A stretch of DNA of 64,000 nt, taken from NCBI GenBank assembly GCA_000934665.2, contig KZ538336.1:1-64000 (forward strand), in the 5' to 3' direction. The translations under genes and the position numbers were made by a program. This document shows positions 32,985 through 58,628 of this stretch, piece by piece; the stretch's first letter is position 1; every line of letters begins with the position of its first letter. The stretch is from Catajapyx aquilonaris (taxonomy: Eukaryota). The notes under the pieces were generated by a model. That model ran no database searches. It was not told the DNA's origin and saw nothing but the letters and a program-made list of their open reading frames with translations.

Positions 32985-35900
32985 CTTTACAGAGGCCAAT
33001 TGCCACCCGTGTCACCTGCGGAAAAAAATGCACAGTTCAGATTAAAGTGTACGGACAAACATACCGTAAATTAAAATTTAATGAGCACATTTACATGTCA
33101 GCGATGACGTCACTGAGCGAATGTAAAAATATATTTTTCTCCCAAAGAATCGCTGCAACATCGCTGATAAATTGCTCGCATGTAAACGCGGCTTTATAGT
33201 TCACACCCAAAAATCCACGGGGTTGGCTTGAAAAGCTTGCGATTAAAATTTTTCGGAGGCGTTCGTTGCCATAACGACCCGATTGAATCAATCAAGATTT
33301 AATTAACAGATTGGGGTGGACCAAACAGGCTGCTAATCACACACATTATGAGGAAACCCCACTGCTTCATCACGTAAGATTCCAATCTGTTGGCAAAAAA
33401 ATAATAAAAATTGTTCTGACGCGTCACATGTGCAAAAGCTGCGTACATTTTTTAGGTAAGGGTTTTTTTGCGCTGAACAACATTCGTATATCCAGCTGTA
33501 GTTTGAAACCAAAACCTATCAAACATGTGGAGCAAAAAGAAGGCAAGAAAAAGCGATATAGTGTAACGGCTCAAGTTGGCACATCAGATTTGGCAAACTT
33601 TTTGCTCCAGATCTGCGGATGTGCCAACTTTTTCTCTCTCTCCTAACACTAGTAAATATGAAGGACATTTGTATCGCTTTTTTTTAAACGGTTGACAAAA
33701 ATTTTTTTTTGACGGGGAGTCTTAATTGACCCAGCTTTGATGAGTGCCTGTCCCAGTCAATAAGTTTGGTCTGGCTTGTTGCATGTCAAATGGGCGTTTC
33801 TTTAATACGGAGGGGACTTGCCAACCAGGTCGATTCGTAACCACTCATATCGGCATCGGATGGACAACAAATAGGCAATTGTTGTCATAAAATAGGATCA
33901 CCCAATATTATGCCGCACCCAAAGTTAAAGCGTACGGCCCAAATGCGTTATTGGATAACCAACCGCGGTACGTAAAGAAATCGGGGGAAGAACCCAGCAC
34001 TTCGCATGCACTTCGCATAGTTATCTGATGACAACGTAGCAATTATCATGTCGTATCCGACTCTTACAAGCGACCTTAATTATTTAGGCCAGGACGCTAC
34101 TGTATGGCCCACTCGAGTAAACTGTTGTTGCCGACACAATCATCACAGTTCCTAATACATATGTTAGCCATTTAAAAAAAAAACACATAATTTTAAACGG
34201 AAAATCCTGCATAAATTTGGGAAATAATTCCAGATTAAAAAACTTAAATTAAAATAACAGTTATTATGACTTCATGTAACACATTTTGAATGTAATAATT
34301 ATATGAACTATGTGTGGATATTTGTGACACTTTTAATTGGGAATGTTGTGGACGTGAATTGATCGGTTATTTAAAAAAATTGCATTTAAGAAGTTACACG
34401 GTACGCACACGGTACATTGTAAATCACATCAATGCAAGTTAGTATTTAAAATTCAATTTAAAATAATTGTGGAATGGGCTCGGTACAGTAACGCCAAGCA
34501 AGTAATGTGCGAAATTATCAATGGGCTACTTTACGTAACATGCAACGTACGTCAGGCGTACCTGTACGCCTCTCAAATATAGTTCGGTTGAATCTAGATG
34601 TAAGAATAATAATCACACACACTTAACTAATATTCATTATATATTTTAATAAATCAATGCAATTCAAGTTACACCTATGCGACTATTATCCGTACATCTA
34701 GACACAATAATTGCACGGATAACCGAAATGTACATTAGCGTAAATTTAAATCTAGGTCGTGATGTAAAATGTAGGTCAACTTAAAATGCAATGTAGGTCA
34801 AATTTTTAAAATGTGCTACATGATTAATATAACGCATGCGTAGCACATGTGGGGAACGAACAGACACTCAGGCAACGATATCAAAATAATGTCGGTCCAA
34901 TCGTGTATGATTCGGTCGTATGTACCGATCGGGCTGTGACCATTGTAATGTTGCAGTTGTTGTTGCTCGATTTAGTACTGTGGGTACATGTCATTGTTTT
35001 ATGAATGTGTGGGTCGCCATGGTTGTTTAACTGAACCCATCGGTATGTAACCGCTGCGATGTAAGTCGTCGCTGCGTACCGACACCGGCGACACTTCAAC
35101 CGCAGCGGATCACCCGCATCACCTGTCATCCTCCCAACGCATCAACTGTCACCAAAATCACCAAACAACCCACAACACTTTTTCTTTTTTTAATCAACAT
35201 TAAATTAAAACCCTCTTTCTCTCACCTTATCACAGCCACGTTTGCTTCTCTACCTTCCACCTTTCCACCCCAATTAATGTTATTATTATAATCCAGATAA
35301 AAAAATAAAGTTTGTGTGTGTCCTGGGGGGTAAGCTATTCTAGTCTATCGACCATTATAGACCTTTTCCTACCCCCCCCCTACCCTCCTCTCTCCCTTTT
35401 TTTTACCCTCCCCCACCATCCATAAAGACTAGCGCTAGTATGAACAAGCAGGGTTGGAAATACAGCGAACGACTATCGCCCTTTTATTTCCAACCCTAAT
35501 GCTACGTTGCCACACTGCCACTGTTGCCATTTTAATTCGAATAAACCGAACATGCTAATGATTCCCCCCCGGTCTCTTTTTCTTTTAAAAAAATGAATGG
35601 CAAACGATGTTATTTATAATAAATAAATATGTTTAAAAAAAATTGGTTGACAGCGCTGCCATTCATCAGCTGTTGTTTTGGTAAACATCGTCCCTCTGCC
35701 GGCTGACATTCCAACCAAAAAAAAAGTAGCGGCTACTTACTATTCGCTGCTATCCCAATGCGAATTGGATGGGGGGATATATTAGCTTCTTTTTTCGTTG
35801 TTGTTGGCTATATCAGTTATTGTGGAACACCCCACCCCTCCCTCCCTCTCCTTGCCTTCCTCATCCTCTCCTGGGGGAGACTTGCCTTCTTCCTTCTTCC

Positions 35901-36234: not shown

Positions 36235-36795
36235 TGGGATGGAACGTACTTCAGAATGGAACGTCCAGAATGGACCAATCTCTGTTATGGAACATTTTTT
36301 TTGGAATGTAACATTCTTCGGAATGGAACGTTCTCCGGAATGGAACGTTCTCCGGAATGGAACATTTTCTGTAATTGATCATCCGCACTGGAATGTTCTT
36401 TGAAAGGTACCATCCAGAATGGACCAATCACTTTTGTGGAACATTCTTTATTGGAATGTAACATTCTCTGTAATGGAACGTTCTTCAGAATCAAATATTC
36501 TCTGTAATGGAACATGCTCTGTAATGGAACATTCCCTGTAATCGTAATGGAACATTCTCCGTAATCGTAATGGAACATTCCCTGTAATTGCAATGGAACA
36601 TTTCCTGTAATGGAACATTCTCTGTAATGGATTCTCTGTAATCATAATGGAACATTATCCGTAATGGAACATCTGCAATGAAACATTAACTGTAATGGAA
36701 CATAGCCTACACAATGGAACATTAATGGAGCATTCTCTGTAATGGAACATTCTCCTTAATAAAACATCCGTAATGGGACATTATCCGTAATGTGG
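36235..36795. repeat. Minisatellite of about 17 bp (TGTAATGGAACATTCTC) with a higher-order duplication
   Basis: Many AATGGAACATT/AATGGAACGTT copies. The block CCAGAATGGACCAATC...TTGGAATGTAACATTCT occurs at about 36265 and 36414. Confidence 0.9.
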
Positions 36796-38568: not shown

Positions 38569-41308
38569 GGTGGGATACGTTGTGGTTTTTTTTTTTCCCA
38601 GGGTGTGTGGAGTATGGCCGGGGTATGTTGCCACTGCCAATTTCAGCCGTCACAGGGTGCTGAACTAGCTCATTTTTTAAAAACGTCACGGCCCAAAAAA
38701 AACCATTTTGTGTTTGAAACCTGGGGGCCGGATGCAAAGGCAGCTCATTTTTCAAGACACTTTGTTTTATCTCTCCATGCTTCCATCAGGTCTAAAATCT
38801 TTATTGACAGAAAAGAAAGTACTGCCGCAACTTGGCCAAGTGCGCATGTACATGATGAAAACGGCAGCTCTCTCAGCCTATTTGTAGTTTCAAAATTGAT
38901 GGCAATAAGAGGCTACGACTTGCACAATTTGATTTTCAAGTAGGTGTTGGGACCTTTACGTCTTCCTTTATTGAAGGAGGCTGATTTTTTTTAATTCTTT
39001 GATCTCAGACGGACCTGGCTGCCTTTGCATCGAAGCTCCACACTTGTCAGTCGCTTAGGGAAACCATAAGTCACGGCTCAAGTTTTAAATAAAATCTCAC
39101 TGCAAGTTTCATGTCGCACTGGTAACCTCACCCTTTCCCTCGAAACCTGTCAATTCGATGCATTGCACACAAAAAAAAACAATGTTTCAAGTAGTGTTTT
39201 TGATACCGCTTTGATATTGTTGCCTGCAATATTGTTCATTTCTTTGCTCGTTTTCCTGAGCCGAAGCGTGAGCAGTCTGAATGTGTTTTTTGCTAGATAC
39301 AAGACTGACTTTGCTGTGAGATCTCAAATCAGAGAGGGCATGAGAGAAGTTAAAGAGCACCTGTTGGCCCGCCGCACGAAGTTTAAAAAAAAAAAAAAAA
39401 AATGTCAGAGCTTCACCAGATTTTTACAGGGGATGTGTTTTTGTTTTTTAAATGGTTGTGTCAGGATGCATTATTGTGTGCAAAAATACAGGCAGCTTTT
39501 AGTATTGTTGCACTATCAGGAAGGCACTGTGTGACAAATCGGCCCAATTACCTTTTTTTTCTTCCTTTCACACTTTCACCCCTTCGAAATACTCAAGAGT
39601 TGGGATCGATTTATCTCATGGCTGCCGTTTGATCGGGGGGGCCCTCTTTTTGCCTTGCTGTCAGATGAAACGGGAGGGGGGCGTGTGTGAAAAAATTATT
39701 ATGGGGTAGCTTTAAACTGCTTTCTAAAGTGAGTGCCAAATGATTGTCCCAGTGATTTAAAGCAATCATATCTGGGGGGGTTGGATGTTCAGTGGGGGGG
39801 AGGGGGGGATCCTGATGGAAAGAGCATTTTTATGTGGGTTCATATGAACACCTGAAATGCAGAAAAATCAGTGTCACATTTGCATGATTTCAAGCACTGT
39901 ACTGTTTTACGGTATCTTGGTTTTTAAGTTGATCTAGAAGCAAACAAGATCGTCTGAGGCGGAACTGAATTGACCAAAATGTGACTGATCATTCTGCGTT
40001 TTAAGTAGTCATATTATTTTACTGTACTTACTCTCATGTAATCCCGCATTTCTCACCGTTACGAGTTAACTGTAGTCTGCAGGCATTAGTTTCGGCAAGA
40101 TTAGGCCCTTACTAAAGATGAACTGTGTGTTTGTCACTATGTCGACTACTAGCGCCATAATAAAAAGCTATCTGGCTTTAAGAAGGCAGGATAAGTAGTA
40201 AAATTGGAGGCAGACGAAAGATATGTGGACGGTCATCGTGACACTTGCTCTGTCTCTTACTCCATCGAAGACCTTTCCAGCTTGGTCGACAAGTAGTCGA
40301 AGCTACCACTCGGGAAGGAACCTCACAGCAATTCCAGTGTGGACATATATTTATTACGTACATATTTAAATTGACATTAGCGCATGGGCTGCAGAATCTC
40401 TAAGAAACGGTGACGAAAATAATAACTGTGTGGATTACGTGAGATTAAATATAGTATTAGATTCTGAGAGTTAAATTAGGCAGCTATTAGAGTAGCAGAG
40501 AAAATTTATACAATGCAAAATATTACACTGCATAAGCTATTATTGAGGTTTTGCGAAGTGAAGGACGCTGTGGGTTCATTTTTTAATTTCTACCTCCGTT
40601 TAGTTGCAAAGCAATCTCCAGTATGTTTACATAGGAAAGTTTATTCGTGTGTGGTATGGTAGTGAAAACTCTGATGGGTTACGGTAAAATTGCATTGGTG
40701 GAAAGCATGTGGAAAGGACCCTTGTTCATTTTTGGTGTGATTGTGCTCTCTGATCCACATGGGAAAAGAATTTATTGCATCACAGACAGTAGAGACTTTA
40801 TAAAGTGCTGTGTTACAATATAATTATTGTCTTGTGCCACTTGTGCTACGTGGTGCGATTCAGTCAGACTGAACTCGTGGCCCCAGTGTACTGCAAGTTA
40901 TTGCAATGCTTTTAATCAGTCACGGGGGCTTAGCCTTTGTGACGCCGCACTCTTTGTGGGAGTACAAAAGTAGGCACGACAAAGTATTTGAGGAAAGAGT
41001 CAGTATGAAGGAGAGAGAGAGAAAAAAAAAACAAACATGCAAGTTATTTTTTTTTCCTCCAGTACTTTTGTGGTGGTGCCCTTGTGAAAACACACATCAC
41101 TGTACAAGAGTTTGAATAAAATATGTGAATATGTGATTTTTATGCATTGCACTCAAATCATGACCTCCCTATGCTGCAATTAATAAAACACTCAATGCGT
41201 AGTCAGTGAGAATATGAATTGCTGCACACCTTCCTCGGTAATACTTCATAAACTTCACAAGAATAAGCTGTACATGAAAAGTATTGTTGCGATGAGAGGA
41301 TTACAAAA

Positions 41309-43649
41309 TTACTCAGTCTCCTCATAGTCGGATTCATCTGAAGATAGTTCATTAGACAGTAACAAGGTGCTGTAATGTTTAGAATGACATTTTGGTTACA
41401 TGTAATGAAATAATGTGATTAACATTAGTACCTGTTGTGCGTGTAGTCGAACTCGGCGGTTGAATTCTGGCAAAAGCATTCGACACATTCGATTGTGACA
41501 AATTCACAGGGTTCTTCGCAACTTGGGGGATCGTATGGGCAGTGATCTTTCACACAAGATGTGGTTTCATTTAAATCAACACAGTGCTGACCTTCATCAC
41601 ATTCTTTGAACTGAAATAGTTTTATGGTACGTAATGTGCACAGTAAAAAAGGTGGCGGCTATGTACTGACTGAACATGGAGTAGTGAACTCCTCCGACTC
41701 CTCCGACGACTCCTCCGACGACTCCTCCGACGACTCATGTGAATTCTGGCAAAAGCATTCGACACATTCAATTGTGATATATTCACATGGTTCTTCGCAA
41801 CTTGGGGGATCATATGGGCAGTGGTGTTGCACACAAGATGTGGTTTCATTTACATCAACACAGTGCTGACCTTCATCACATTCTTCGAACTGAAATAGTT
41901 TCATAGGACTTAATGTGCCGAGTGAAAAAGGTGGAGGCTATGTACTGACTGAACATGGAGTAGTGTTCTCCTCCATCTCCTCAAGCTTGCAGCTAAAAGA
42001 TGGGCAGCACTGGTCCTCTTCGTGGTGCCTCTCACAGTGCGTGCCTTCAGAAGGTTGAGGCTCTTCAGGACAGATCTCTTTGACGCAGGTGAAAATAGGA
42101 GGCGTTGTGCATGTGCACAAAAAGCAAGGGTCGTTGGTTAGTTTCTCGCCTATTTCGAGCGTGATATTGCCAAACTGACAGGCATCTGGTCTCGCAGTAA
42201 AAGCTGAGGGCAAATTAGCAGTAAATATTTGAGCACCGACAATAATGTTGATTTTCGTTACCTAGATTTACGTCGTCGTCAGCTGCTGAAAAGGACGTTA
42301 ATATTAGAGTTTATTTTCCATATGTGTGTTAATTTAATCATTACGGCATTTCCAGGTGGTAGGACAGCATTCGTCAACCATGTAGACAGGCGCACAACCT
42401 TTCTTTACATTTTGCCAGTATGCCAGTTCCAGTCCGCATGGGATTGGCTTGCACCATGGCCACACTGCTTGTCCTGGAGTAACGGAATTAAGCACATACC
42501 CAGTCCCGGCTTGCTGTAACTTACCGTAGAAACCTTCTGCGCAAATGCACACCATGCAACTCTGGTCCATGGGATAAAATTTTTCTCCGTAGTAATACTC
42601 GCGCCCATCATATTCGCAGTCGACTGGTGCCGATTCCGAGCCTGAAATAAGCCTGTGTGTATGAGTGGGTGTACCCCATGTTTCTAATTGTTACTTTTTT
42701 ACATGGTATGGAAACAAGTGGTAATTGATGTCTTATTCGAACTTCAAAACTTTTATTTCTTAGGTCCATGCTTCATCTCTCGTAAAAGTGAACAATAACT
42801 ATTGACTCCCAACGCTTTTAATTTAGTATGTTTAGATGGATGTCTTTTGATCAATTGAATAGTACCTACCACATAACCATTCAGATGGACAGCATTCATC
42901 AATTTCGTACTTAGGTGTGCAATCGTCATTTTCAGTTTCGCATTTTAAGGCGTCACACTTAATGGCATAAACTGGGCCACTGGAAAAATTATGGCGCTGA
43001 CATACCGCTATGTTTTTTAAAAATGTTTGAAGACTTTACCTTTTTGATCTTTGTTTTTTACATGAACAGTTGATTTGGCAAGGGTCGTCTTCAGTTACTT
43101 CAGGAATATTTTCATTTACCTTGTAGGCTTTTCCTTTGTACTGGCATTTTTTACTGTTCCTGTTCAAGTCTTCTGCAGCTGTTGGATGCCGTAAACTCAA
43201 CATATTTGTTTATTAAAATATGTAGGCCTACTTACCGCAATTGTAGCTGCTTGGACAGCAAGATCCATAACCAATGAAAGGTTTGCACGAGAACTCAGTG
43301 TAGTGAGCCAGGTACTTAGTGCAAGAGTGTCGATCTTCACATTCAGCTGAGCATTGAATAGTGGCCAATTTTTTTAATTATTTCATTGTCATTATGTAGG
43401 TACTCGATCAACTTACGAATTTGGGCCTCTATTTCACCCAAGGCTTCTTTCAGCGCAGTACGAAGGATCTCAATTGAGAACCCAAGGTCTAGGCAGTTCC
43501 CTGAATATAAGAGAGTAATGATAATAATATGCAGTTGACATTATTCTCTGAACTCAAGCTGCTCCGTTGTGAAACGTGTTTTGGACACCTGAATTTGGCC
43601 ACATTGCAGCTGCGAATCCACAAACAAGAAGGAAATGATAGATCCACAT
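41309..43649 (-). CDS. Secreted cysteine-rich multi-VWC-like protein (gene B), about 12 short exons, no Kunitz domains
   Basis: Signal MWIYHFLLVCGFAAAMWP. Exons encode ECEDRHSC...HYTEFSCKP...CCPSSYNC, KCQYKGKAY...PCQINCSC, IKCDALKC...ECCPSEWLC, CEYDGREY...CMVCICAEGF, WCKPIPCGLEL...GCAPVY...CCPTTWKC, CQFGNITLEIGE...CFLCTCTTPP...CCPSFSC, two duplicated CDEGQHC exons and an acidic tail ending YEETE*. Splice phases are compatible; the first donor (GTGTCC) is weak. Confidence 0.78.
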
Positions 43650-44121
43650 TCCAACGCTTCCCATGTGTAAACTCTTGGCTCGAAGGGGTATATTTACAAC
43701 AGCCAATCAGTTGGTGACACATCGCATAGTAATTCTACAACCTACGGGAAGTGCATATTGTGTTTGTGAATGCGATAAAAGGTAAATTAGGCATTGTGAA
43801 TTTATCATTGTTGTAAGATGCTTGGCATGATGTAATGTTGGCGACTTCTTTTGTAAAATGTCTTTAATTTGGTATATGTAATATTATTTTGCGTAATTGC
43901 CGCGGTTCACTGTCAGGCAGCAAATATTTGGCCTTCTTCGTAATGTGTATTCTTTGGTATGAAATGGTCGGTTTTTGGCTGAAGAATGAGACGGGGTTAT
44001 AATAATGTATTTATTATTTTTGCAGTAACAGTATTAAGTATATGGCATTGCTATTGATGAGATATTGCAGTCCACTTGGACTAGTTTAGTAACAAAAGAC
44101 GATGTGAATTGCAGGTTCATT

Positions 44122-47100
44122 TTATGTTGAAGATTCAGTTGAAGTCGAGGTTGAAGTGCTGGGGATAAACAAAAGGCTGCAGTTAAATATCTCGGTACAA
44201 TCATTAACGATGCTGCTAATGAGCAAATTTTCGTACCTTGTAATAGTTGTACTACTGCTTTTGTAGTGGAGAGCTGCGGTCGAAACCTCACTGCTTTCTG
44301 TGCTGCTACTTGTTGCAATGCAGGTGGGATTGTCACCAATCATAACGCAAATTTGACTTTCCTCACAAGCGATGTCCTGTGTGGAAGAATTTTAATTGGA
44401 ATTTAATCCATATCGATTGTAAATTGCTTTCTGAGCAGGACTTGCGATCGACACTTTGGGCCCAAGAGGACTAAACTATTTGGTGTCAACCTACAGCGCA
44501 AGATGCCATCCTGACTGGTGGATTCATGGGCAAACATGAGTAGCTAGGGCAGCACTCGTTGTCGGTGTAACTTATGTCACACTTGGCGTCAGATGGTGGC
44601 TGAGGGCATCGCTTCTTGATACAGGTCAGCCGAGGGGGAGTGAGGCAAGTGCAGGTCACACACTTGTTGTCGGTGATTGCCAGTTGCTCACCAATCCCAA
44701 GCTGTGTTGTTCCGTGAAAGCATGTCGTTGGTTTCTTGCTGTAACCTACAGTAAATTTTGTGGATGTGAAAATTACTTATTACAGAGGTAAACCAATGAG
44801 ACGCAACTATTTATCGCTTTCCTGTTGTATTGCAGTGCTTACCAGACGGTGCTTCGTGCGTATCAATCCCAACATGTGTGCATTTCAAAATGCATTCGTC
44901 GTGAGTGAAAAAGTTGTTGCCATTGCCTCCACAACCACCGTAATAAAAGTGCTTACAGCTTGAAGTGACAGGGTCATAGAAGTAACGAGGGATGTAACCA
45001 AAGCAAGGACCAGTTTTAGGAGGAAGCTGACATGTAGAAGCTACAGGGACGGAAATGAGAAGTAATTTGTTAAAAAGAATGAAAATAAGAAGCAAAGATA
45101 ACAGTTGAAAGTGATGTAAAGCGGAAAAATGTTTCTGTGAAATCCGAAAAATGTTACCCCAATCCTGGCCAAGATCAATTTCAATGGCCACGGGCTTCGC
45201 ACACATGGCCTCGCATTCTTTTAGACTATTGAAGTTGTTGCCATTCCCTCTGCATCCACCATAGATGAAGTGTCTGCACACCTTGTGCTCATAATCGAAA
45301 TAAAAGCGATGGAAAGCACCATAGCAAGGGCCAGAATTCACTGGCTGCTTACACACATCTGACAGAATTGGAAGAGATTAGTAAACCCCCAATTTAACGT
45401 GGCACAGCATGTTACGTACCTCCAGCACGCCTCTCAATTTTGACTTCGCACTTTTTGTGGCATTCGCGCAGTGATTTGAAATTGTTTTCATTGCCACCGC
45501 AGCCAGTGTAAACGAAAGGTTCGCATGTTCCCACCACCACGTTATAATAGTATCGATGAAGAGCACCACTACAGTGGCCCATAGCTTGAGGCAGGCTGCA
45601 ATTTGTGTCTATGAAAAAAGTCGGAAGATGTAACATTGCTCTACGAAACTTTTCAATCTGGCATGTATACCTTCAATAGAGTTAGATTCGCTACTTGATG
45701 AACTTGAACTTGAGTTTGAACTGTCGCTGTCCTGACTCCGACATCTTTTCTGGCATGCTTCGAGAGTGAGGAAATTATTCGCATTTCCTTGGCATCCACC
45801 GTATATGAATGTCCTGCATTCTTTAACCTTGTTGTCGTAGTAGAAGCGTATGATTTTTGCCTTGCACATTCCGCTCTTTGCAGGGAGTTGGCATATGTCT
45901 ATATCTGAATGGTTGAAAGTTATGTGCGTAATTGGTAATGTTATGCTGTATGTTGATTTACCTCTCAGAGTAACGTTAGTTTCCGCATGAATGCCACATT
46001 TTTCAATGCATTTTTCCCTGGTTCTAAAATTGTTTTCGTTGCCTCGACATCCGCCGTAGATAAAGTCCTTGCATGTGTTATCGTTAGGGTCGTAATAAAA
46101 ACGAGGTTTCATAGCTCGACATGGCCCTACTTGTGCCGGCAACTGGCAAGGCTTATTGTCTAAATATTTGGACAAAATCAATTATTACATATCTTTTCCA
46201 ACAGATCATTGGAGTAGTTGAACTAACCATCTGCTCTGCGAAAGTACTGTTCCAGTGTGTTGTCAATTTCATTCAACTCTTTGCATTGCCTCTGACATTG
46301 CTCCATGGATTTAAAATTGTTAGCATTTGCTCCGCAGCCAGACTCAAACCTAGTGCACTTTCCGCTCAAGTGGTCAAAATAGTAGTTTGGTCCAGTATCG
46401 CAACGTGTCTCCACTCCCGGAAGTTTGCAAGCTGATAGTCGCAGAAGAAATAGGATTAGAAAGAGAAGTGCATGCAATTTTTTTTTTCAAGCGTTGTTTT
46501 AGTATGTTACCTGAAACCGATTGGTTGTTGCAGGCCTCGTTACATTCGTCCAGCGTTTCAAATCTGTTTGCAGTCCCTCCACAGCCACTATATGCAAAAG
46601 CTTTGCACGTTTGCTCTACAGAGTCATAGTAATAGTTAGGGATGTAGTATTCGCATGGTCCTTGCTCCATATCCAGAGTGCATATGTCCGTTTTGTCATC
46701 TACCAGAATATGTTATGTACACTGTGGGCATGTGGAAGTGCATGTTTTTTTTGTGCATCAGTTTAGTCCATTACCTGAAACCGATTGGGTGTTGCAGGTC
46801 TCGTTACATGCGTCCAGTGTTTTAAACCTGTTTGCATTTCCTCCGCAGCCACCATACACAAAACCTTTGCACGTTTGCTCTACAGAGTCGTAATAAAAGC
46901 TAGGGATGTAGGCTTCGCATGGTCCTGCCTCCATATCCAGATTGCAAATGTCCGTTTCGTTATCTACTAGAATATGTTATGTACACTATTGCAATGTGAA
47001 GTGTCAAGCTCACTTACTTGGAGGTGGTCTGGTAAAGTCCTCCAGATTTGGCTCTGGTGTTGACTGCTCTAGCGCTGAGTTAGGTGTTGGAGTTGGCCGT

Positions 47101-50100
47101 GGAGGCACTTCAGCTGAAAGTGGCTTCGGTTTAAGCAACAACCGCAGCAAACAGTGTGGTTGTACTTACGACATTCCCAGTCGATTGCGCAGCATCTGTT
47201 TTCCAGGTAGACTGGAGAACACCCGTTGCGGATACGCTCAGCATAGTGGATCTCAAATCCGCATTCGATTGGCTTGCAGAATGGCTCCTCCAAGGTTTCT
47301 GCATTGATAGATTATAGAGTCAGAGAACTTGTCATGTGTCTAATGCTACTCTTAACGCACCGTTATTGAAACCAGCCTTGCATGTGCATGATATGCAGTC
47401 ATTGTCAGCACGGTCGAATGTCTGTCCCTCCGTGTAAGTGGCACCGTTGTACTCGCACACTATAGGCTCAGGTGTCGGTTCTGAACTGGGTGTCGTTGCA
47501 TCTTCAGCTGCGGAAAGTCACACTGTTACATGCACAATCCTTAACAGTTGATTTCAGGTTGTTGTGGAACACACATCTGTGCACAATGTCCAAGTGAAAA
47601 CTTACGACAAACGTGACCAACTGCACAGCACTTGTCGGGGCTGTAGATGCGCTTGCAGTGAGACTTCTCACGTGGGTGTCCGAAGAACTCGGGGCATTCC
47701 ACGCTGACGCAGTTTGGGGCCACCTCACTGTTGTGAAATAATAATAATTTTATTTATTTATTTTTTCAGAGGGTTGACATAAGTGTTTACCCTGGATATA
47801 GCTCCCTGCAAGTACAGTGCACCAAACATGGTTTCCGCTCCATGATTTCTGGCATGGGATCACTGACGTTGTACTCCTGTCCACGGTAGTAGCACTTGGA
47901 ATTACTTCTGTCGCTCAGGTGACCTGTTCACATAACAAGGTGATGGTAGTAAAAACAAGATAAACTCTGAATTTGTGGTAACTGATGCATCACCGAGTAA
48001 ATGACATGCTCATAAAATAACCAGGTGACCATGACTTCATTCTGGAAGTTTTGTCGGTTCAGTTACAGAACATCCTGTACTTTGTTGGAAAGTACTTACT
48101 GCAGTCATAGCTGGTTGGGCAGCAAGCACCGTCGTCAAAGTTGGGCTTGCATCCAATCTCCTGGTAATGCTGGTACGTGTACCACGGACAACTCTTGGTA
48201 TCACACTGGGTGTCTGAAACACATCAAATGTACCATTATGTATTGGTAAACCTTTCTGACAGTACTTGTGTTGGTACTTTCCCATGTGTTACGTCAATTG
48301 TCAGTTAATCAAGCATGCATTAGTACCCCCCATTAGAGGTAGTAAAGTGTACAAAAAGTTGCAAGCAATTAGTCACGGTGTTGTACACATGTGCCCTTCG
48401 CAAGTGTCACTCTTGTCGGAATGAATGCGCAAACCAGAGTATTGTGTAGTACAAGTGTTCAAGGTTACCAGTGGATGGTTCATCACCACCGCATGTCTTC
48501 CTGCACTCTTCTGCACTTTCAAAATTGTTCTCGTTGCCACCGCAACCAGTGTATATGAAACCCTCACATCGATTCGCTTTCTGGAAATATAAACGCAATG
48601 TTTTAACCTCACCGGTACATGTCCAATATGTCATGCAATAAATAAGGTCATGTCGCTACGGTATACAAACCATCAGCACTCTAGCAAGGCGCTTATTCAC
48701 TTTGCTCAAGTGCTAGAGAGTCTAGAAAACAACGGATTGGAAAATCACATTCGAGTAGACTTTTTCTCAAAATTGCCAAAGGAAATTCAAATTGGACAAC
48801 AATAACATAGAATGTTGTTGCTGTCTAATTTCTCGTTGTCTTAAGCAACCTAAAGGAGAAATAAGTTCTAAATCATGTAGGCTTGACCTTGGTGGATAGA
48901 GTGAACCCGTAAAACCGGAAGTTGGAAGGGTCCACCGAATCCGAATCCGAAAACCGTTTGTCTCTATTGCGGTTTAATCCCTTGATACATGTCCACAGAC
49001 AGACAGACGGACAAGAGCCGTCCTATGCGACTTATTTATTAGGAAAAAGTCTATCCGAATCCGAAAACCGTTTGTCTCTACCTCTTGCGGCTTAATCCCT
49101 GATACATGTCCACAGACAGACAGACGGACAAGAGTCGTCCTGTACGACTGATTTATTAGGAAAAAGTCTATCCGAATCCGAAAACCTTTTGTCTCTATCT
49201 ATTGCGGTTTAGTCCCTGATACATGTCCACAGACAGACAGACGGACAAGAGTCGTCCTATACGACTTATTTATTAGGAAAAAGTCTATCCGGATCCGAAA
49301 ACCATTTGCCTCTATCTATTGCGGTTTAATCCCCGATACATGTCCACAGACAGACAGACGGACAAGAGCCGTCCTATACGACTTTTTATGAGGAAAAGTC
49401 TAAAATCACGTGTTTTACGAATCCAACCGAGTGCGCACCCACACTCGCGCAGCTCTATTGTTCCTCTGAGTTTCGTTCCGCAGCCTTATTGGCAACGTCG
49501 CAAACGTGCAAATGTGTTCCCCCTCCAAGCGTAGCGTTGGAAATAAGCGAGGAGAGCCTACCATCAGCTATAATTGATAATTCCAACCCTGCACGCTGCG
49601 CGAACTGTGGTGTGCACTCGGTTGCGTTCATAGAGTGCTGATGATGATGGTTGTATATAACGACATGATACTTTTGAGCGTACTGACAGAATTAAATGCG
49701 TATTTCTCCTTAAAAGCTCTGCAGTCTCCAGTCTTGATCTCCATACTGCATACCGCCTTACCGGACCGTCGTGCTACAAATAATGAAAAATAAATCAATC
49801 CTTGCGCATTGTACGGCGGACGGTCCGTATACCTTTCTTTCCGCACTGTCTGACACACTCGTCCTCAGTGTCGAACAGGTTGGCTGTACCTCCACATCCT
49901 CCGTACACGTATTGTTCACACTGGTTAGCACCGGAATTGAAGGTCCATTTGTCAATCAGTGCTAAGCATCTGGCTGCCCTAATTTCCTCAGGAGGTAGCA
50001 GACAAATGTCTTGTTCCGACGATGCGTTGTCAGGTACGGCAGTTGGTTCAAACGACTCATCAGACGACGATTCGTCGGATGAGGAGTCTTAATGTATAGG

Positions 50101-50891
50101 ACAAGTAGTGTTATATAAACATAAGCATATACAAACGACAGTCGTACCGTTTTTGGTCAGCAGATGACCACATTGGAGCAGACATAGTTCTTTGGTCTCG
50201 TAGTTGTTGTCGTTCCCGTTGCATCCTCCGTAGTTGAAGTCCTCGCATTCGCCAGTGTTGTTGTTGTAGTAAAACTTGCGTATCGCAGCACGGCATGAAC
50301 CTTTGTCCGGTTCTGCCATACAGCATTTTTCGTCGGTGCAATCAGGATTCCTCACATCTGCAGGTTACGGGTATCGCAATGTTCGGTATATAAATCAGGA
50401 AGTCTGTACGTATGTTGGTATGTCCGGTCTACCTAACCCACTTTCAGACTACTGAGAGTAAAACTTAGCACACTGATGGCTTTTTTTATATATAAAAAAG
50501 TCTAAATACCAAAATAATTCATATTCTTAAATTGTTGTGTGGTTTATAATGTATAACATTGGCCGCATTTAATATGTGGTGTGTCCCCTCCAACTGGTAG
50601 TGCAACACCTGCCGAAGTACTTGTTAGGTCGCATTAAAACGGTTAATGACATGCCACAGGTGTGTTTAGCAGCTGGCAAATGCTATTCATGTGGCAATAA
50701 TATGGCTTTTTGTTATACAACGTGCAATAAAAGCAACATTATTGATTTGCATCGTTCAAAACCTTGGAAAAAAAAACCCCAGATCAATTTTCCAATAAAC
50801 TAGTTATTGCAGCATGATTAAAATTATGCTTACCTGCTGGTAGTGCCCAGCATGATGCTGCCAGAAGACACAGTATTGTTGACACCCACAT
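44122..50891 (-). CDS. Secreted multidomain Kunitz (11 domains) plus VWC-like protein (gene A)
   Basis: Signal exon [19 protein letters not shown] (50891-50834). Three Kunitz domains (about 50355-48470), a five-exon Cys-rich/VWC-like cassette (about 48215-47170), eight Kunitz exons (about 46965-44840, mostly with YGGCxGNxNNF-type motifs), a VWC exon (about 44745-44495) and a Ser/Thr tail ending STSTESST* at 44122. Confidence 0.85.
48935..49405. repeat. Four tandem units of about 115-120 bp containing (ACAG)n; Helitron/DINE-like derivative
   Basis: CCGAAAACCGTTTGTCTCTA...GATACATGTCCACAGACAGACAGACGGACAAGAG...GACTTATTTATTAGGAAAAAGTCTA recurs at about 48947, 49061, 49178 and 49295. The superfamily assignment is inference. 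Confidence 0.85.
49420..49628. mobile_element. Small inverted-repeat (MITE-like) element in a gene A intron
   Basis: CAACCGAGTGCGCACCCACACTCGCGCAGC (about 49424) versus GCTGCGCGAACTGTGGTGTGCACTCGGTTG (about 49595-49624). No clear TSD. Confidence 0.55.
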
Positions 50892-53800
50892 TGTTTGAGC
50901 ACTGTTAACACGGCACAGCCAGACAAGCAGAGGTGTCTGGACAGAGTGGGCAAAAATTTTTATAGGCTTTCCTATCACGTCTCTTCGGGTTCTGAGTTGA
51001 GGTCATCCCGAAGCCGACGTCACCAAACGTCCTCACCCAATCCAATCGCGGCAGTAGAAAGCTTCGCAACTATTTTTTTAAAACAAAAATACTATTAAAC
51101 ACTTACGATTGCGGTATAGCATGTGCGAATCATTGGGAGGTCAAAAGGTCAAGTTTGTGGCCATGGCGACGGATGGAAAATCCCCCAATATGTGCGTGCA
51201 GTGCATATCGGGTACTTAGTATTTACAAATCGATTTTGTTTCACCGAAGAATGTTGATGTACCCAGAATATTGACGAGTAGATGTCCTATACGAGCTTTT
51301 CGTAAATTAGATAATGATTAACAGCAATCAGATTTGGGCTACTTAAGTGTAAGTAGTTGCAGCTTTTAACATATTTGACTGACTGTTTGGCATGTAAATT
51401 GAACTGGCGTCAGTTTTATTGACGGACAGTATAAAACGGGTTGGGGGAAACTGGACTATATAGGGCTGACGTTTCGTGCGGATATGCATAAATAAATAAA
51501 TAAATAAGTAAATAAATAAAGTAGGAGTGCATTGCCTTGGGCTCAGATAAACTGGGTCACCACCACTCCCTGCCAAAATGACCTTTCGTTTCTACTGACT
51601 GTATTTTTTATGTATCGTCATGAGGCCGTAAAACCCCCTCTCTCTTCCCGTTTTACCTGGGATGATGTACAGGGTGTCGTGTAAGGTCACTGCCAGTATA
51701 CTGACGAAACATCCTGACAATAAAGAGGAAAGAGGAAAAGTGTTGTCACGTACAATAATTGAAGCCGGCCCTTTGTTGGCCATCTGTATAGTGAGCAAAA
51801 TAAGTAGGGCACTAATGGCAACAGTGTTTAATTTTTTGCATAATTTTTTGTATTTTTAGAATCACAGGGTGGACCAGAAGGTCGCATTGCTACATGTGAC
51901 CCTACATGTCATTATCGCACAATTGCAATTGCATCCAAAAAGGTCATACGCGAACCTTGAACCCATCGAATAATTCCTGGAAACCTTCAATGTGAGAATA
52001 TACGCCGAGGGTCATACTTGACCCAGAAAATGTGACGTCATCCGATGGGCTTACCGGATGATTTTTCTATCGCTAATAAAAATTCTAAGACTTTGTGACC
52101 TTGACTTGGTAAAAGGATGACATCCCACACCTTCTTATGTCACAAGGTCCAAAAATGGGAAAGATCTGGAATTGAAAGTGGGATTTTAAAATGGGCGGAC
52201 ACGACCTTGGATAAATATATTGTATTTGGGTGGCCTACAGGGTGATCCACTACTCAAGTCTCTTAATTCAATTTACTAGGCTGGGGGGGAAACAACCATG
52301 ATTAATAATGTGGAGGCAATCGCCTTGTAAATTTTTCTGAGAAAAAAAAGTACGATTATTTCTTCATGAGGGGAATACAGAGTGGTTGTGACCTACTGTC
52401 CAACTTTGGGCTTGAAGGACGATTGTTGTAGGCTTTAGCCAAACGTGGTTTTTTCATGGGCAAGGATTCTTCTCAGGCATATCGCTTCCAAGAAGTTGAC
52501 CTTACGTAACGAGCAATATCATGGATTACTGGGAGAGATAATAAAAAAAGTGTTACATCTTCCAGGAGCATACAGGTCTAAGTAGAGAATAAGCCTTACA
52601 ACACAAAGGCAGAATAATACTAAAATGACGTAATTTGCATAGTGGGCAACATTGGATCTTTTCTCCTGATAGGCTTATATTTTCTCCGTCGGATGTTTGT
52701 CCGACCTGATAGTGTCGCTATCTCTCGCAGACATGAGGGTGGCAGGAGTGTGCAGAAGAAATGCGCCATCTACGCGTGAATAATAGTACTTTGTATGGTA
52801 AATTGGCGGTCCACCTAATTAAAGTCGTTTGTCACTTTCATACCGTAGCCAAATTTATTTATTTTATATTATTACAGTACCTCTCACTTTCATCAGCTTC
52901 GAAGATTGTTTCCTCATCATGACACATACTATTCAACCTTGAATAGCTGACTAAGTTTTTATGTCCTCTTTTTGTGTGTGTGTTAATATGACTATAGATG
53001 AGTAGGCCAAATATCACGATGGTTTCTGAGAATTTGGAGTCAGAAAATTATCCAATAACATGTAATTAAAAGTTGAAGGTCCGCTAATTTGCATGTGCTT
53101 TTTTTTATTCAAACATAAAAAAAATTAGTTGCCGTCATAACATCCGCCAGAGTGAGACACATCATACTTCAGTTGTGGGCGTAACATGTTAAATTTGACC
53201 TAATAATTAAGCCAAAAATTCGATCGAAATAAATCCGGTGTTAAAACTAATTTAAAAAATAAGCACAAGTGCGCTGCAAGAGTCGCCGCCTCCCATCTAT
53301 TTGCATTTAGTAGAAGCTGCTAATATTAGCCTTGTTGGTTTGACGACATTCCCAAGCTTCGGTCTACTTTTTGGGCAGGCCAAAATTAGAGCCCTTTCGG
53401 TGTACACTTGGGCCTAGCTAAAGGAGTGCATGCGTGTGCATGTGTGTATGACCCCTTAATATTTTTTTTTCCAACTGAGCATCACCAGCAATCAGTGATC
53501 TAAACAACTATCAGAAGGTAAATAATGTGGGCGACAAGCTGTGGTTTTTACATTTTCTTTGTGCGATATATTTTTCGCTGTTAATAGACAGTGATTCAAA
53601 GGATGTGAGGCCTAATTAAGCGTGAGATTAGTATAGGAAGCGGCTCCATTTTTTTGTGTGTACAGTGCATATAAAATTCGGTGTGTGTGAAAGGATGTAG
53701 TGAAGGTCTAGAGAAGAAAACGTGTTTTGCATGTGGCCACGCAAAAGCCCCCATTCAGCAATGCTCTGACTCATTCACGGCTCTCGTTATAATATTTAAA

Positions 53801-55085
53801 GGGTTAAAATGCACCTTTTAAAATATTAATATTGCATTGGTGAAGTACATAGCCAATATTGCATTGTTATAGAAAAGTTAGGTAACATGTGCGCAATAGT
53901 GGTTGGATTCATAATAATAAAAAGGTGTTATTTTATTGGTATGACTCGTAATGTATAGATATGCAATTTATATAGGTAATAGTTGTAACACCGCTTTTAA
54001 CTACCAGTTGCATATAGAATCAAAATCTAGAAAAAACAAGAAACTTGTTTTGATCAAAGTGATAAGATCAGCATGTGACTAACATGTGCGTCTAATATTG
54101 CTCAATACAATATATGTAATTAAATAATATATCATGATATTTAACTATCTTAATTTTGTTATTTAATTTGGGTGGAATTTACGTCTCACTAGCAGTGGGA
54201 CTACAATTACACGCATTGCCGATTTACTCTTTCCATGAAAAAAGTGATAATTAAACATTTAAGTAATGACACCACAATTAGTAAATATATGTAATGGACT
54301 AATGGCATAATTATATCAATATTACGAATTTATGCAATGAAACCATTGCAAAATTAACAGAATAATTAAACAACACGTGCGATTTAAACTAATGACATTT
54401 AATTAGAAAAAAACGATCAGAGGGCACCATGTTGTATTATTATGCGTTTAATTTTTATTTAAATAAATGTTATTACATGGCCATGCGTTTTAAAAGTACG
54501 TACTTATCTATCATAACAAACCACACCTTTAACCACACTATATGGTAATGATTTTAAGTAATAAAAACCGTATAAGAAAACATTTTATAATAAAATCCAC
54601 CAGTTTGAACCTCCCTCCTCAATTACACCGTTGCCAAATCAACAGAACCGGCAACATGGCCTTGATGAAAACCATTTAAAAAAAAAATCAACTTATTCCA
54701 AACCAAGACTTTATTAATAAACACAAGTAAAAAAAAATTAAATATTTTATAAATAGTAACCAATCCCCCTGTAGATAGAAATAATCCTGATCAAAGATGT
54801 CTCCTTGATTTCGTTTGTTGCATCGCATCCAAGGGGAGACCGAGAGCTAGAGAGAGAAAATTCCAACCATTTTATTATTCCGATTCTAAAGAAACAGCAA
54901 GCCGATTATCTGCATTCCTCCTGCTGGGACTTGTGCGCCTCAAAATTTATACACAAATTTAAGTAAGTTACACCATGGGGTGGAGCCGCCTTTGTTGGGG
55001 GTCATTGGACACTGGTCATTATTTGGAGCAAAAATTAAAAAATGCATATATTTGGTACATTCCAATAATTGCAGATACTCAAGAT

Positions 55086-58000
55086 ATGGAGAGCGCCGTG
55101 AGTGAGCCGCAACCCGAGGCGACACCCGCTGCGATTGCTGCGCTTCCGGAAGACGTCGCACCGCAAGTGGCCGCACCGTCGAAGGCGGAAAGCAGCCGGG
55201 AAAGCAGCAAGCGGGATGAACGACTAAGAAAAAAGGCGGAGAAGAGCATAGAGCAGCTTCTGAAGGCGCTGAACGACCTGCGTACGCCCGAGGAAAAGCT
55301 GGCCTTCATGTGCAAGAAGTGCGCTGAGATGTACGAAGAAAACCGCCGGTTGCAGTACGGTCTGAAGCAAGGCGAGAAGCGGGCGCTGCAGCTGTGCAAA
55401 GAGAAGGAGCACCTGCAGTCGGAACACTCCAAGGCGATCCTAACCAGAAGCAGGCTTGAGAGTCTCTGCCGGTATGTCCCATGTAAAAATGTACCTACAA
55501 ACTGTAACCCCCCCGGTTTCATTTTCAGCGAGCTTCAGAAGCAGAACAAGGCGGTGAAGGACGAGAGCTTGCTGCGGATCCGTGAGGGTGAAGAGAAGCA
55601 GCGGGAGGTGTCCCTTAAGTTCCAGACGACGCTGACGGAAATTAATTCCCTAATGCAACAGAACACGGAGAAGAATGCGAAGCTTAGGGAGGAGAATATT
55701 GAGATGGCTAAGAAGCTCAAATCGCTTTGCGAGCAGTACGAGGCCCGCGAGCAGGTGAGGGAGCAGGTAACTACACACTCTACTTCTCAGAATGGAGTGA
55801 AGTGGTTGCACTGTTGGGTGGCGCACACCTTTTATTTAATTATTTGATATTTAAAAAATAATAATTAATTGTTACTAACATTATTGAATGGCGTAGTATC
55901 GCGTAGTATGTAGTAATGGAAATGTTTCCAAGCACATTTTTTTTTTTTTGTAGATAATACTGTTAGTGCAGTGGGAATTGCGGTTTCAGTTTTTGAGTTG
56001 CTCGTACTAGTTGCAATGAACTTGGAAAAGTTGGTAATCCAATGTGGTCGCATCACAGCCAAATTACGAGTTCACTTACAAGTAAATTAATAAGTAATGT
56101 GGTAAAAATGTCAAATCACATCCAATTAATACACTAAGCGAGTAGAGTACAAGTTGCCTAGCCAAAAATTAATCGTAGAAATGATGCAACGATTGGCCGC
56201 ATTTTAAAAACTTCATTAGTTGCAGCAATTACATGTTTGAAACATTGGTTTATTAATTTTTATGCATCTGACTGATTGCACATTTCGTAACTTACGCATC
56301 GTGCTGCATGTTGCATATCGCTGTGATTGCGAACCGCATTTTGACCGTGTTTAATGCGTCCAGCACGTTGAGAAGCTTCTGAAGCACAAGGAGCTTGAGT
56401 TGCAACTGTCCGAGGCGAAGCTAGCGAAGGGCAAGATGGAGATGAGCGAGGAGAGGGAGAAGCACCTGAAGGAGAAGCAGGAGCTGCTGTTGGAACTGAC
56501 TGAATACCAGAAGAAGTGCCAGGAACTACAGACGAGTGAGATCGGGCTCAGGAACCAGCTGCAGCTGTACACGGAGAAGTACGACGACTTCCAGAAGGCC
56601 CTCACCCGGAGTAATGACATCTTCTCTAGCTTCAAGAGCGAGATGGAGAAGGTTAGAATCGCTCTCTTGTATTTTGGGACTCGAGTATTTCATTGCTTAG
56701 TTATTTGAGGCACCAGACATTCTGCAGACCAATGACCTCGAAACACAGAAAGTAGTGTTGGAGTAGTAGGAAAGTAGAAGGGATGCAAGTGTTGACTTGA
56801 ATTGCAATACAATGTGTCGTTTGGTCAAGGATGAGCGGAGAGGGAATGAGAGCCTTTACTCCCATGATGCAGGATTGAGGTCAGTTGCTTTTTTTTTACG
56901 AGCCACCAGCTGTACTATAATCATAAAGCACATTGCCTTATAAAAGAAAGATTGGGGCCTAAGTAACGCCATGAAACCGTCGGCACAAATGTAATTTTTC
57001 TAAACATAATTGAGTTTAATGCTAACAGCTGGCTGCCCCATAAGTGGAATAATTACTGCAAGTACAATGCAGGTGACCTGATCCACAGTAGCCATTAGAG
57101 ACGATAAATTGTGTTGTCAGTATTCTCTGGAGTACTTGTTAAGATTTAGTAATTGACGCATATCAAAACAGATGGCAAAGAAGATCCGCAAACTCGAGAA
57201 GGAGACACAATCATGGAAGCAGAAGTGGGAGACGAGCAACTCAGCACTTCTTCAGCTGGCGGCAGATAAGCAGAGAAGGGACGCCGAAGTCAAGGCTGCC
57301 ACCAAACAAGTGTCACAGCTGGAGAAACTCTGCAGGGCTCTGCAGGCCGAGAGGAACACTCTCTCCGCACAGCTCAAGACATGCCAAAATGGAACAGGTT
57401 AGTAGACAACAATACCTGAAATGCATAACAATTAACAGTCACATTTATTGTTGGAACTTCGGCATTGTGCACATAATCCATATCTTGCTTTCGGTGGCTG
57501 AAATTATTATCCTTTCTAGTGGCTCCTGAAGTTGTTGCGCCAACCAGCCCAGCTCAAGTAGCAGGTGACTGCGAGAAAATTACAAATCAAATTGAGGAGA
57601 TTACCTTGGAAGAGGTGGAGAGTGACAAGGTACGAACGGAAGAAAACACTCCAGAAGTGGTGGAGAAAGTTGCTGCTGCGGAAGAGAGTAAAATATCCCA
57701 AGAGAGCAGCTTAGAGGACATTTCTCAGGAGAAAAATGTGCAGGAGAAGATTGCGGAGGAGAAAACTGAGGAGAAAAAAGCAGAGGAGAAACCTGGGGAA
57801 GGAGGAGTCCAAGTGAGTCACGTTTATAGAGAACTTTGTTGGGATGCTCAGGTTATAGAAGTTCCACTATACGATTTGGATTTTAAGCGAATATGAAATG
57901 GGTACTTTGTGTCAGCAGAGCATCAACAAGGAAGTATAACTACGAATCGCCAAATTGCCCTGCAACTTGTTACACCTTTGCGGTTTGCTTACATTTGCAT

Positions 58001-58628
58001 TAAATTAGATGGGACAAGTAGATCTCTCAATGATATATGCCTGTCACAGTTGGAGAACTCCTGGCCCACATCCGAGGCAAAACTGGTATTAGTGATTATT
58101 GGTGTACGTTGTTTTTACTGGCTAATGATAGTGGATGTGATTACAATGCCAAAGGCACTTGCTTCAACGCAAGCATCATGCTTGTGCAGGATTTTTCCGA
58201 TATAATTATGACAAATGCTTCTGCGCTATTGAAGCTAAAACCTTTTTAACCTGCCAGGAGCTGCCACTGGATACACTGGAAATGGAAAATTTGTTGAAAG
58301 AGCAGGAGGCAGCGGCAAAACAGATGGAGCAGCTGATCCACCACCAGAAAGACATCGACACCATCAAAGAAGAGCAGGGATCCATCTGGGCAAAGGACGA
58401 CTCTCCTGACGCAGACGACATTTCTTCCAGCATGAATGGAGCCGAGAATGGTATTAAAACCAGTTCCGAGGAAGGGGATAAGAAAGAGGCTCCAACCAAA
58501 GATGGAAGGAAAGTCAAGGTGAGTTTGAGTTCCTTATTAGCAAAGTGTTTCTGGCTTTTATTAGAGTGTGTAACATATGCGGATTAATTTTTTTTCAGGA
58601 GGGAGGTCGCAAGCGGAGGAAGAAGTAA
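55086..58628 (+). CDS. TXLN: Taxilin family coiled-coil protein. Exons approx. 55086-55471, 55529-55754, 56364-56651, 57172-57398, 57520-57812, 58258-58518, 58599-58628
   Basis: RSRLESLCRELQKQNKAVKDES, LREENIEMAKKLKSLCEQYEARE, LRNQLQLYTEKYDDFQKALTRSNDIFSSFKSEMEKMAKKIRKLEKETQSWK and LEKLCRALQAER are taxilin hallmarks. The C-terminal exon choice is less certain. Confidence 0.92.

Follow-up and report, generated by a model that had tools for sequence, protein, structure and literature searches.

The first 64,000 nucleotides of contig KZ538336.1 of Catajapyx aquilonaris (GenBank assembly GCA_000934665.2), the whole stretch analysed here and called the window below, carry two adjacent predicted genes on the minus strand, A and B, which share one ordered cassette of cysteine-rich exons. 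Gene A exhibits in addition eleven Kunitz domains, three located upstream of cassette exon V1 and eight between exons V3b and V4. The best explanation overall, which we consider probable, is that A and B are two tandem genes for secreted proteins belonging to a pan-arthropod scaffold family, with A as the ancestral full form and B reduced to the scaffold by loss. An earlier note, made from the DNA alone, had described the same tandem pair and proposed a lineage-specific architecture that it could not match to papilin, TFPI or kielin. The pair itself was recovered as described, but the lineage-specific part was contradicted, the same domain order being present in several arthropod groups and the scaffold-only form being common in insects and spiders.

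The six pairs of peptides quoted by the earlier note were sought in stop-to-stop frames between positions 41400 and 50900, and all of them were found in open frames of the minus strand, each where the note had placed it. The interval given there ends at 50891, on the ATG of gene A, and starts at 41309, 116 nt past the stop codon of gene B (41425-41427). To obtain spliced models, GT-AG pairs keeping the frame between conserved cores were enumerated and ranked with a rough splice matrix. The introns of this eukaryotic window are of the GT-AG kind and short, most of them 51-140 nt long, and GT-AG was present at every intron of both models. Two splice sites, the donor at 48487 (K3) and the acceptor at 44745 (V4 of gene A), have close alternatives. 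CCAAT-like and TATA-like sequences precede both ATGs, at motif level only, and the 5' flanks of A and B showed no meaningful DNA similarity to each other.

The comparison of the two models showed that the intron phases are identical at all shared junctions (1, 2, 1, 1, then 0 after V4), the exon phases being 1-1 for V1, 1-2 for V2a, 2-1 for V2b, 1-1 for V3a and V3b, and 1-0 for V4, and that the predicted intron positions lie within one codon of each other. V2 and V3 each form one module spread over two exons, with CxxCxC in the first half and CCxxC in the second, the full 10-Cys module of V4 lies in a single exon, and V1 corresponds to the second half of a module only. In V1-V3, 22 of 22 Cys columns were aligned and colinear across A, B and four relatives, and the local hidden Markov model (HMM) of the cassette was covered from position 1 to 204 of 205 in both genes. 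When the gene B model was searched by tblastn against the territory of gene A within the window, V3 matched with an E value of 7e-13, V4 with 1.3e-11 and V2a with 1.2e-5; V1 and V2b did not reach 1e-3 and could still be aligned Cys for Cys. Judged from these alignments, the likeness of the two predicted genes is beyond chance, in keeping with the same-strand adjacent paralogues that had been proposed. Their cassettes are 36.9% identical, A being nearer to several insect proteins (up to 41.8%). Elsewhere in the 64-kb window no additional copy of the cassette or of a Kunitz domain was detected, since none of the 73 high-scoring segment pairs obtained by tblastn with both models fell outside 41300-50950.

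The confinement of the Kunitz domains to gene A, in a 3 + 8 layout, was confirmed by a Pfam scan of 23 exon-sized frames. The Kunitz family (Kunitz_BPTI, PF00014; MEROPS I2; cut-off 21 bits) was above cut-off in nine frames, all of gene A and amounting to 11 domains, with scores of 40.6-73.3 bits for the seven single-domain frames and of 127.3 and 140.6 bits for the two double-domain frames, and the exon frames of gene B gave no Kunitz match. The local HMM led likewise to 11 domains, all with six Cys residues and nine with the exact spacing 8-15-7-12-3; the first loop of K2 has 11 residues, and K6 has spacings of 14 and 6. Ten of the 11 domains are single exons with phase-1 introns on both sides, as the earlier note had seen for most of them. 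The exception is K3, split by a phase-0 intron of 1107 nt, unusually long, which carries a 117-bp satellite. The P1 residue, taken here to be the residue after the second Cys of each domain, is R, L, R, E, E, D, R, K, S, Y and F in K1 to K11, respectively, and this variety suggests several trypsin-like and chymotrypsin-like targets for the gene A product. K4 and K5, 78% identical at the protein level and located within a 264-bp repeat, are a recent tandem duplication of one Kunitz exon with its intron, which indicates that the C-side array is still expanding.

We then examined how far the family extends. When a two-Kunitz frame was searched among longer proteins, 61 multi-Kunitz proteins with up to 45% identity were obtained, among them the unnamed P0026, which also has a VWC2L-type and a cystatin domain and the domain order of gene A. 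The cassette region of P0026 led in turn to P0062-P0064, full-length proteins with a signal peptide and the order K4-cassette-K4-cystatin-K2-V4-cystatin, while a word-based search among longer proteins with the V4 exon of gene B gave nothing at E<=1e-3. A V3 profile, built from the window and the locus references only (alignment A2), was compared with 1.84 billion representatives; 545 proteins matched at E<=1e-3, of which 266 reached E<=1e-10, and the best 150 of the 545 matches were listed. Another alignment, A1, made of four cassette parts and ten exon fragments, was discarded with no searches run from it, the fragments having all piled on the last repeat; its four full rows served as seeds for the local HMMs. 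With these HMMs, 106 of 229 fetched proteins, for part of which organism names were available, exhibited at least 60% of the V1-V3 cassette. Kunitz domains were present in 34 of the 106 (on both sides in 20, on the N side only in 7 and on the C side only in 7) and absent from the other 72, whose median length is 289.5 aa.

Every named member is an arthropod, which by itself would make an arthropod source of the window probable. The Kunitz-bearing ones come from Daphnia sinensis, Tigriopus, Artemia, Allacma, Nymphon and Macrobrachium, the last with pacifastin domains. The search for the same domain order that the earlier note had suggested was successful: the order Kunitz(n)-cassette-Kunitz(n)-VWC was found in predicted proteins of Daphnia, Tigriopus, a springtail and a sea spider, and partial or variant forms in Artemia, Strigamia, Macrobrachium and many unnamed metatranscriptome proteins, some with cystatin or pacifastin. 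The Strigamia protein (P0203) has Kunitz domains and a V3 match and lies below the 60% cassette bar. Scaffold-only proteins are known by name from eight insects (Zootermopsis, Macrosteles, Clastoptera, Xenopsylla, Ischnura, Culicoides, Nilaparvata and Ignelater) and three spiders (Stegodyphus, Caerostris and Trichonephila); one identical-length entry of Nilaparvata is named "seminal fluid protein". In relatives on intron-free contigs, Kunitz and VWC parts stand in one open frame, L001 being uninterrupted over 862 aa. Gene A itself has the layout K3-CAS-K8-V, with Kunitz domains on both sides and V4 after the second block, gene B lacks the Kunitz blocks, and gene A aligned end to end with the Daphnia protein P0015 with 36.2% identity over 993 columns and 87 shared Cys columns. 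In a protein atlas, the scaffold-only Zootermopsis protein P0072 adjoins four arthropod-only clusters of 61-126 members, which share no Pfam family and bear the automatic names "hypothetical protein" or "NELL2". Two single observations were made among these relatives. In Culicoides sonorensis, the scaffold-only proteins P0084 and P0232 have adjacent locus numbers (CSON006945/CSON006946), a hint of tandem paralogues in the midge. The unnamed metatranscriptome protein P0073, on a very long branch, apparently contains two cassettes, in the order K-K-CAS-K-CAS-K5-V.

On these sequence comparisons, A and B belong to a widespread arthropod family that is present in databases and neither named nor curated. 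Had the architecture been that of a described and widespread ortholog group, the lineage-specific proposal would have been in conflict with it; the group is widespread, and as for its description we found automatic names only (papilin-like, TFPI, kielin/chordin-like, NELL2, hypothetical), such as "Tissue factor pathway inhibitor" for Daphnia sinensis in UniRef, "papilin-like" and "similar to TFPI" for Tigriopus, "papilin-like" for Artemia and "Boophilin-H2" for Nymphon. Literature searches gave no paper describing the Kunitz-cassette-Kunitz-VWC architecture or the family. A survey of arthropod peptidase inhibitors counts Kunitz proteins and, supplementary lists aside, does not mention VWC (PMC5673224), and the parts consulted of a 2026 pacifastin study treat VWC and Kunitz domains as accessories that pacifastin proteins in general may carry, and not this arthropod family (PMC13388995).

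The fold of the cassette is, tentatively, best read as of the VWC/fibronectin type I (FnI) type. The ten-Cys pattern with an early CxxCxC and a terminal CCxxC, which we take to be the VWC hallmark, is present in V2, V3 and V4 of both genes. The AlphaFold2 model of P0072, based on a 40-sequence alignment, exhibited a mean predicted local distance difference test score of 90.7 and a predicted template modelling (TM) score of 0.82. Its top Foldseek matches were the VWC-bearing NEL/NELL2, with E values of 5e-4 to 4e-3, and single VWC domains gave target-normalised TM scores of 0.59 (CCN3), 0.45 (collagen IIA) and 0.40 (crossveinless-2 VWC1); FnI modules were also among the matches. In sequence scores, the relative P0083 reached 24.0 bits with Pfam VWC (PF00093), below the cut-off of 27.6. 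No match to CHRD, VWD, EGF or TSPN was obtained in the 23 exon frames by the Pfam scan, nor to VWD in 52 relatives scanned.

This fold opens the question of whether the scaffold is itself the active part, binding a ligand of the BMP/TGF-beta type or its receptor, with the inhibitor domains as accessories. VWC domains of chordin, crossveinless-2 and NELL bind ligands or receptors of this type, the scaffold is kept without inhibitor domains in insects and spiders, and its structural matches include the VWC region of NEL/NELL2 and single VWC domains, among them crossveinless-2 VWC1 bound to BMP-2. These matches are weak, with Z values of at most 3.0 when the Foldseek list was aligned with VIA-align, and the scaffold profile found nothing better in the PDB by sequence than an FnI module at E 0.047. 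We consider a scaffold that is the active part in this way unlikely. The scaffold is conserved alone in many arthropods and occurs with cystatin or pacifastin elsewhere, so it probably has a role of its own, which may be to dock to a partner (matrix or ligand) or to bind a ligand itself.

Gene B might also be a decaying or mis-modelled copy without a function of its own. The phylogeny used here and below is a careful, unrooted tree of 48 rows, which replaced a quick 86-row tree after a constrained search had given a better likelihood; the 38 rows dropped were duplicates, near-duplicates, the long branches P0073 and P0183 and some insect rows. In this tree the terminal branch of B is 1.18 compared to 0.70 for A, the last two introns of B score poorly, and the gene is known as a predicted model only. 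Against decay, the gene B model reads open through its 9 exons and 441 codons, with GT-AG at all introns, all 22 Cys columns of the cassette are retained, and elsewhere the scaffold-only form is frequent and conserved (72 of 106 cassette proteins), so that we find decay quite unlikely. At its C-terminus, gene B exhibits a 10-Cys unit, R; its exon was duplicated along with the intron, and the resulting 279-bp repeat has 90% matches. The two copies, R1 and R2, gave no Pfam match, and the unit was absent from the 229 fetched proteins. By eye only, the first three Cys residues of the unit resemble the motif following V4 in gene A and in Daphnia P0015.

A and B are very probably two separate genes, in the predicted models. 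Gene B has its own ATG and a hydrophobic, signal-peptide-like first exon with a phase-1 donor; the last exon of A ends in an in-frame stop, with AATAAA 110 nt downstream; and the V4 donor of A is in phase 0 whereas the V1 acceptor of B is in phase 1, so that simple joining breaks the frame. The first exons of A and B are both signal-peptide-like, in agreement with the secretion that the earlier note had predicted for both products, and begin with MW, as do those of the relatives. The same features argue against one gene with a single long transcript and an internally duplicated cassette. Although the two lie on the same strand with about 470 nt between the stop of A and the ATG of B, their separation rests on sequence-based models and P0073 has two cassettes in one protein, we regard this as very unlikely.

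The direction of change, left open by the earlier note, is largely resolved, the evidence favouring loss in B over gain in A. Gene B corresponds to gene A minus two Kunitz blocks, each bounded by phase-1 introns, and their removal keeps the reading frame. In four of five relatives, the second Kunitz domain of gene A had its best match in the penultimate N-side Kunitz domain, and the third, also in four of five, in the last one; the unusual 11-residue first loop of the second domain and the acidic linker before it are common to its positional counterparts. This positional orthology implies that the N-side block predates the split of this lineage from branchiopods and copepods, and that the Kunitz-bearing form is ancestral. 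As judged from these domain matches, gene B most likely lost both Kunitz exon blocks. In the 48-row tree, Kunitz domains are present in the rows closest to B, namely P0096 and next the gene A clade, and in the branchiopod outgroup, and the nearest relatives of B remain Kunitz-bearing whether or not A and B are constrained together.

Several results weigh against the reading of A as the full ancestral inhibitor and B as its reduced paralogue. For the models, splice scores are poor at K3a/K3b and V3b-K4 and at V4-R1 and R1-R2 of gene B, the exact exon boundaries are provisional, and the 5' and 3' limits of both genes are uncertain. For the inhibitor, P1 residues E, E, D and S (4 of 11) are, we assume, atypical of strong inhibitors, and some of the gene A Kunitz domains may be non-inhibitory. 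For the scaffold, the best Pfam VWC score, on V3a of A and V4 of B, is 18.3 bits with a cut-off of 27.6, and the weak structural matches reported above belong here too; some proteins counted as scaffold-only may be fragments, the lengths ranging from 150 to 2521 aa. For the direction, the C-side Kunitz domains gave mixed best hits and no clean positional orthology. In the 48-row tree, the sister group of gene A consists of 18 scaffold-only proteins (97/86), of which the eight with names are all from pterygote insects, and gene B pairs with the Kunitz-bearing springtail protein P0096 of Allacma (94/79). Constraining A and B together was only 1.14 log-likelihood units worse on the 48-row set (approximately unbiased test, p 0.46), and on the 86-row set the constrained tree was 45 units better than the quick free tree. 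An early duplication and a rapid evolution of B would both fit these likelihoods. At least 6 changes of Kunitz state are needed on the 48-row tree, so gains are possible in general, and the tree, being unrooted, does not separate gain from loss by itself. A gain in A, with Kunitz exons acquired by exon shuffling in this lineage from a scaffold-only ancestor, is nevertheless extremely improbable: symmetric phase-1 exons are the classic shuffling substrate, K4/K5 is a recent tandem exon duplication and gene A groups with the 18 scaffold-only proteins, but Daphnia, Tigriopus, Allacma, Nymphon and many metatranscriptome proteins have their Kunitz blocks in the two positions seen in gene A, the second and third N-side domains are positional orthologues in four of five relatives, the second with its loop and linker, and the best-hit analysis points to the Kunitz domains of A being nested among their positional counterparts.

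Under the preferred reading of an ancestral A and a reduced B, the product of gene A would be a secreted compound inhibitor of several trypsin-like and chymotrypsin-like proteases, with three Kunitz domains between the signal peptide and V1 and eight between V3 and V4, the C-side block having been enlarged by recent exon duplication. The scaffold would be the non-inhibitory part, for binding or anchoring. Gene B would derive from a Kunitz-bearing ancestor by block loss, would then have gained the duplicated C-terminal 10-Cys unit, and would provide the scaffold function without inhibition. The sequences themselves show the domain content, the colinearity, the agreement of intron phases in the models, the relatives with their architectures and the positional orthology of two N-side Kunitz domains, whereas we infer the transcripts, the secretion, the inhibitory activity, the scaffold role and the loss event. 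A bolder version, to which we give little credence, is that V1-V4 is an arthropod-specific rigid carrier that has repeatedly taken on and shed Kunitz, cystatin and pacifastin domains, the bare forms, among them gene B and those of insects, competing with the inhibitor-loaded form for one docking partner; if true, the tandem pair would form, in haemolymph, matrix or seminal fluid, an inhibitor-and-decoy system that can be tuned.

As such, the A/B pair is an ordinary outcome of gene duplication and exon loss. The value lies more in the family, large, conserved, secreted and arthropod, for which we found no curated model and no literature, and in which the same fixed cysteine-rich scaffold is found either on its own or combined with up to three protease inhibitor classes. 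This locus presents both states side by side with intron phases intact, and would be a clean case of domain-block loss via phase-1 introns. If the scaffold has a defined partner, the family may be relevant to arthropod immunity, clotting, moulting or reproduction; a planthopper member bears the name seminal fluid protein in its source.

Table 1 Predicted features of genes A and B and of their surroundings (window positions; K, Kunitz domain; V, cassette part)
Feature	Position	Strand	Remarks
Promoter-like motifs upstream of gene A	50957..51047	-	two inverted CCAAT (~51037-51047), TATAAAAA (~50957-50964); motif level only
Gene A	ATG 50891 to stop 44122	-	20 exons, 1168 aa; predicted spliced model, open
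Gene A exon 1	50834..50891	-	ATG and signal-peptide-like stretch; phase-1 donor, best score 7.2
Gene A K1 exon	50357-50148	-	Pfam 60.5 bits; phase-1 introns both sides; P1 = R
Gene A K2 exon	50087-49833	-	Pfam 55.1 bits; acidic Ser-rich linker before; phase-1 introns; P1 = L
Gene A K3, two exons	49773-49688 + 48580-48469	-	second half Pfam 44.6 bits; first half via tblastn with P0062 and model
117-bp tandem repeat	48939..49402	.	4 copies, 92% matches; within K3 intron
Gene A cassette exons	V1 48213-48100, V2a 47923-47791, V2b 47727-47606, V3a 47507-47361, V3b 47298-47170	-	
Gene A K4-K7 exons	46966-46775, 46699-46511, 46431-46228, 46159-45962	-	Pfam and models; phase-1 introns
264-bp tandem duplication	46507..46987	.	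1.8 copies, 88% matches; spans K4 and K5 exons and intron
Gene A K8-K11 exons	45904-45671, 45608-45420, 45358-45158, 45040-44843	-	Pfam and models; phase-1 introns
Gene A V4 exon	44495..44775	-	complete 10-Cys VWC-like domain, single exon, phase-0 donor
Gene A last exon	44122..44376	-	3-Cys motif, Ser/Thr-rich tail, stop; 3' end uncertain; AATAAA at 44015
Promoter-like motifs upstream of gene B	43689..43707	-	inverted CCAAT (~43703-43707), TAAATATA (~43689-43696); motif level only
Gene B	ATG 43649 to stop 41425	-	9 exons, 441 aa; predicted spliced model, open
Gene B exon 1	43589..43649	-	own ATG, signal-peptide-like stretch, phase-1 donor (CAG/GT)
Gene B cassette exons	V1 43346-43236, V2a 43178-43040, V2b 42979-42870, V3a 42641-42525, V3b 42473-42345	-	
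Gene B V4 exon	41950..42203	-	phase-1 intron straight from V3b; phase-0 donor; VWC 18.3 bits (sub-cut-off)
Gene B R1 and R2 exons	R1 41889-41671, R2 41610-41425 including stop	-	two copies of 10-Cys unit

The neighbouring genes, located by Pfam and long frames at 372-14008, 30709-33011 and 54963-62671, encode a WD40 protein, a Las1-like protein, myosin VI (motor and lever arm), a C78 peptidase with zinc fingers, taxilin and a glycosyl hydrolase family 1 protein, and have no evident connection to the A/B pair. Runs of N mark assembly gaps at 22260-22394, 16573-16575 and 6375, the largest of 135 bases. At 36285-36780 on the minus strand, frames with recurring MFHY...ECSIT strings suggest a tandem repeat or satellite.

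Among known systems, papilin shares with gene A a long run of Kunitz domains, and several relatives are auto-named "papilin-like". Papilin is a secreted matrix protein defined by thrombospondin type 1, ADAMTS-spacer, Ig and PLAC domains beside its Kunitz run; the Pfam scan of the 23 exon frames gave no match to these families at E<=1, and papilin, unlike gene A, is devoid of the V1-V3 cassette. TFPI and boophilin-type inhibitors also combine tandem Kunitz domains with differing P1 residues and target several serine proteases, but have only 2-3 Kunitz domains and no VWC-like scaffold. The multi-VWC proteins (chordin/Sog, crossveinless-2/BMPER, kielin/chordin-like protein, CHRDL, VWC2/VWC2L and NELL) have, as here, repeated VWC modules with CxxCxC and CCxxC, and the atlas features and top Foldseek matches of the scaffold fall among them. 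A and B differ from them in exhibiting none of the CHRD, VWD, EGF and TSPN domains looked for, a Pfam VWC score below cut-off and a half-module as V1. Kielin/chordin-like protein and crossveinless-2 have many VWC repeats followed by VWD; an assignment of A and B to either was rejected, since no VWD was found in the scanned frames or in the 52 relatives. For the proteins in which the fixed V1-V3 arrangement was found, all named sources are arthropods.

The closest counterparts of gene B are the scaffold-only proteins of about 290 aa, such as Zootermopsis KDR18192.1 ("kielin/chordin-like"), Nilaparvata lugens APA33927.1 ("seminal fluid protein"), a Xenopsylla "putative conserved secreted protein" and a Stegodyphus "kielin/chordin-like" protein, in which the signal peptide leads straight into V1-V3 and then V4 with no inhibitor domain. 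Two of them were compared with gene B and exhibited 35-36% identity; the two insect proteins that were read end within V4, whereas gene B has a full V4 and two 10-Cys units unseen in the others. Gene A was compared with Kunitz-cassette-Kunitz-VWC proteins, namely Daphnia sinensis GHT06_009290 (P0015), Tigriopus californicus XP_059096304.1 (P0227, "papilin-like") and the unnamed P0026 and P0062-P0064. It differs from them in its eight C-side Kunitz domains, including the K4/K5 duplicate, and its Ser/Thr-rich tail, and it has no cystatin domain, compared to two in the P0026/P0062 group. Like gene A, these relatives have a signal peptide, 3-4 Kunitz domains, V1-V3, 4-6 or more Kunitz domains and then V4, over 1052-1314 aa compared to 1168 for gene A, and the end-to-end identity of gene A with P0015, P0062, P0227 and P0079 is 32-36%.

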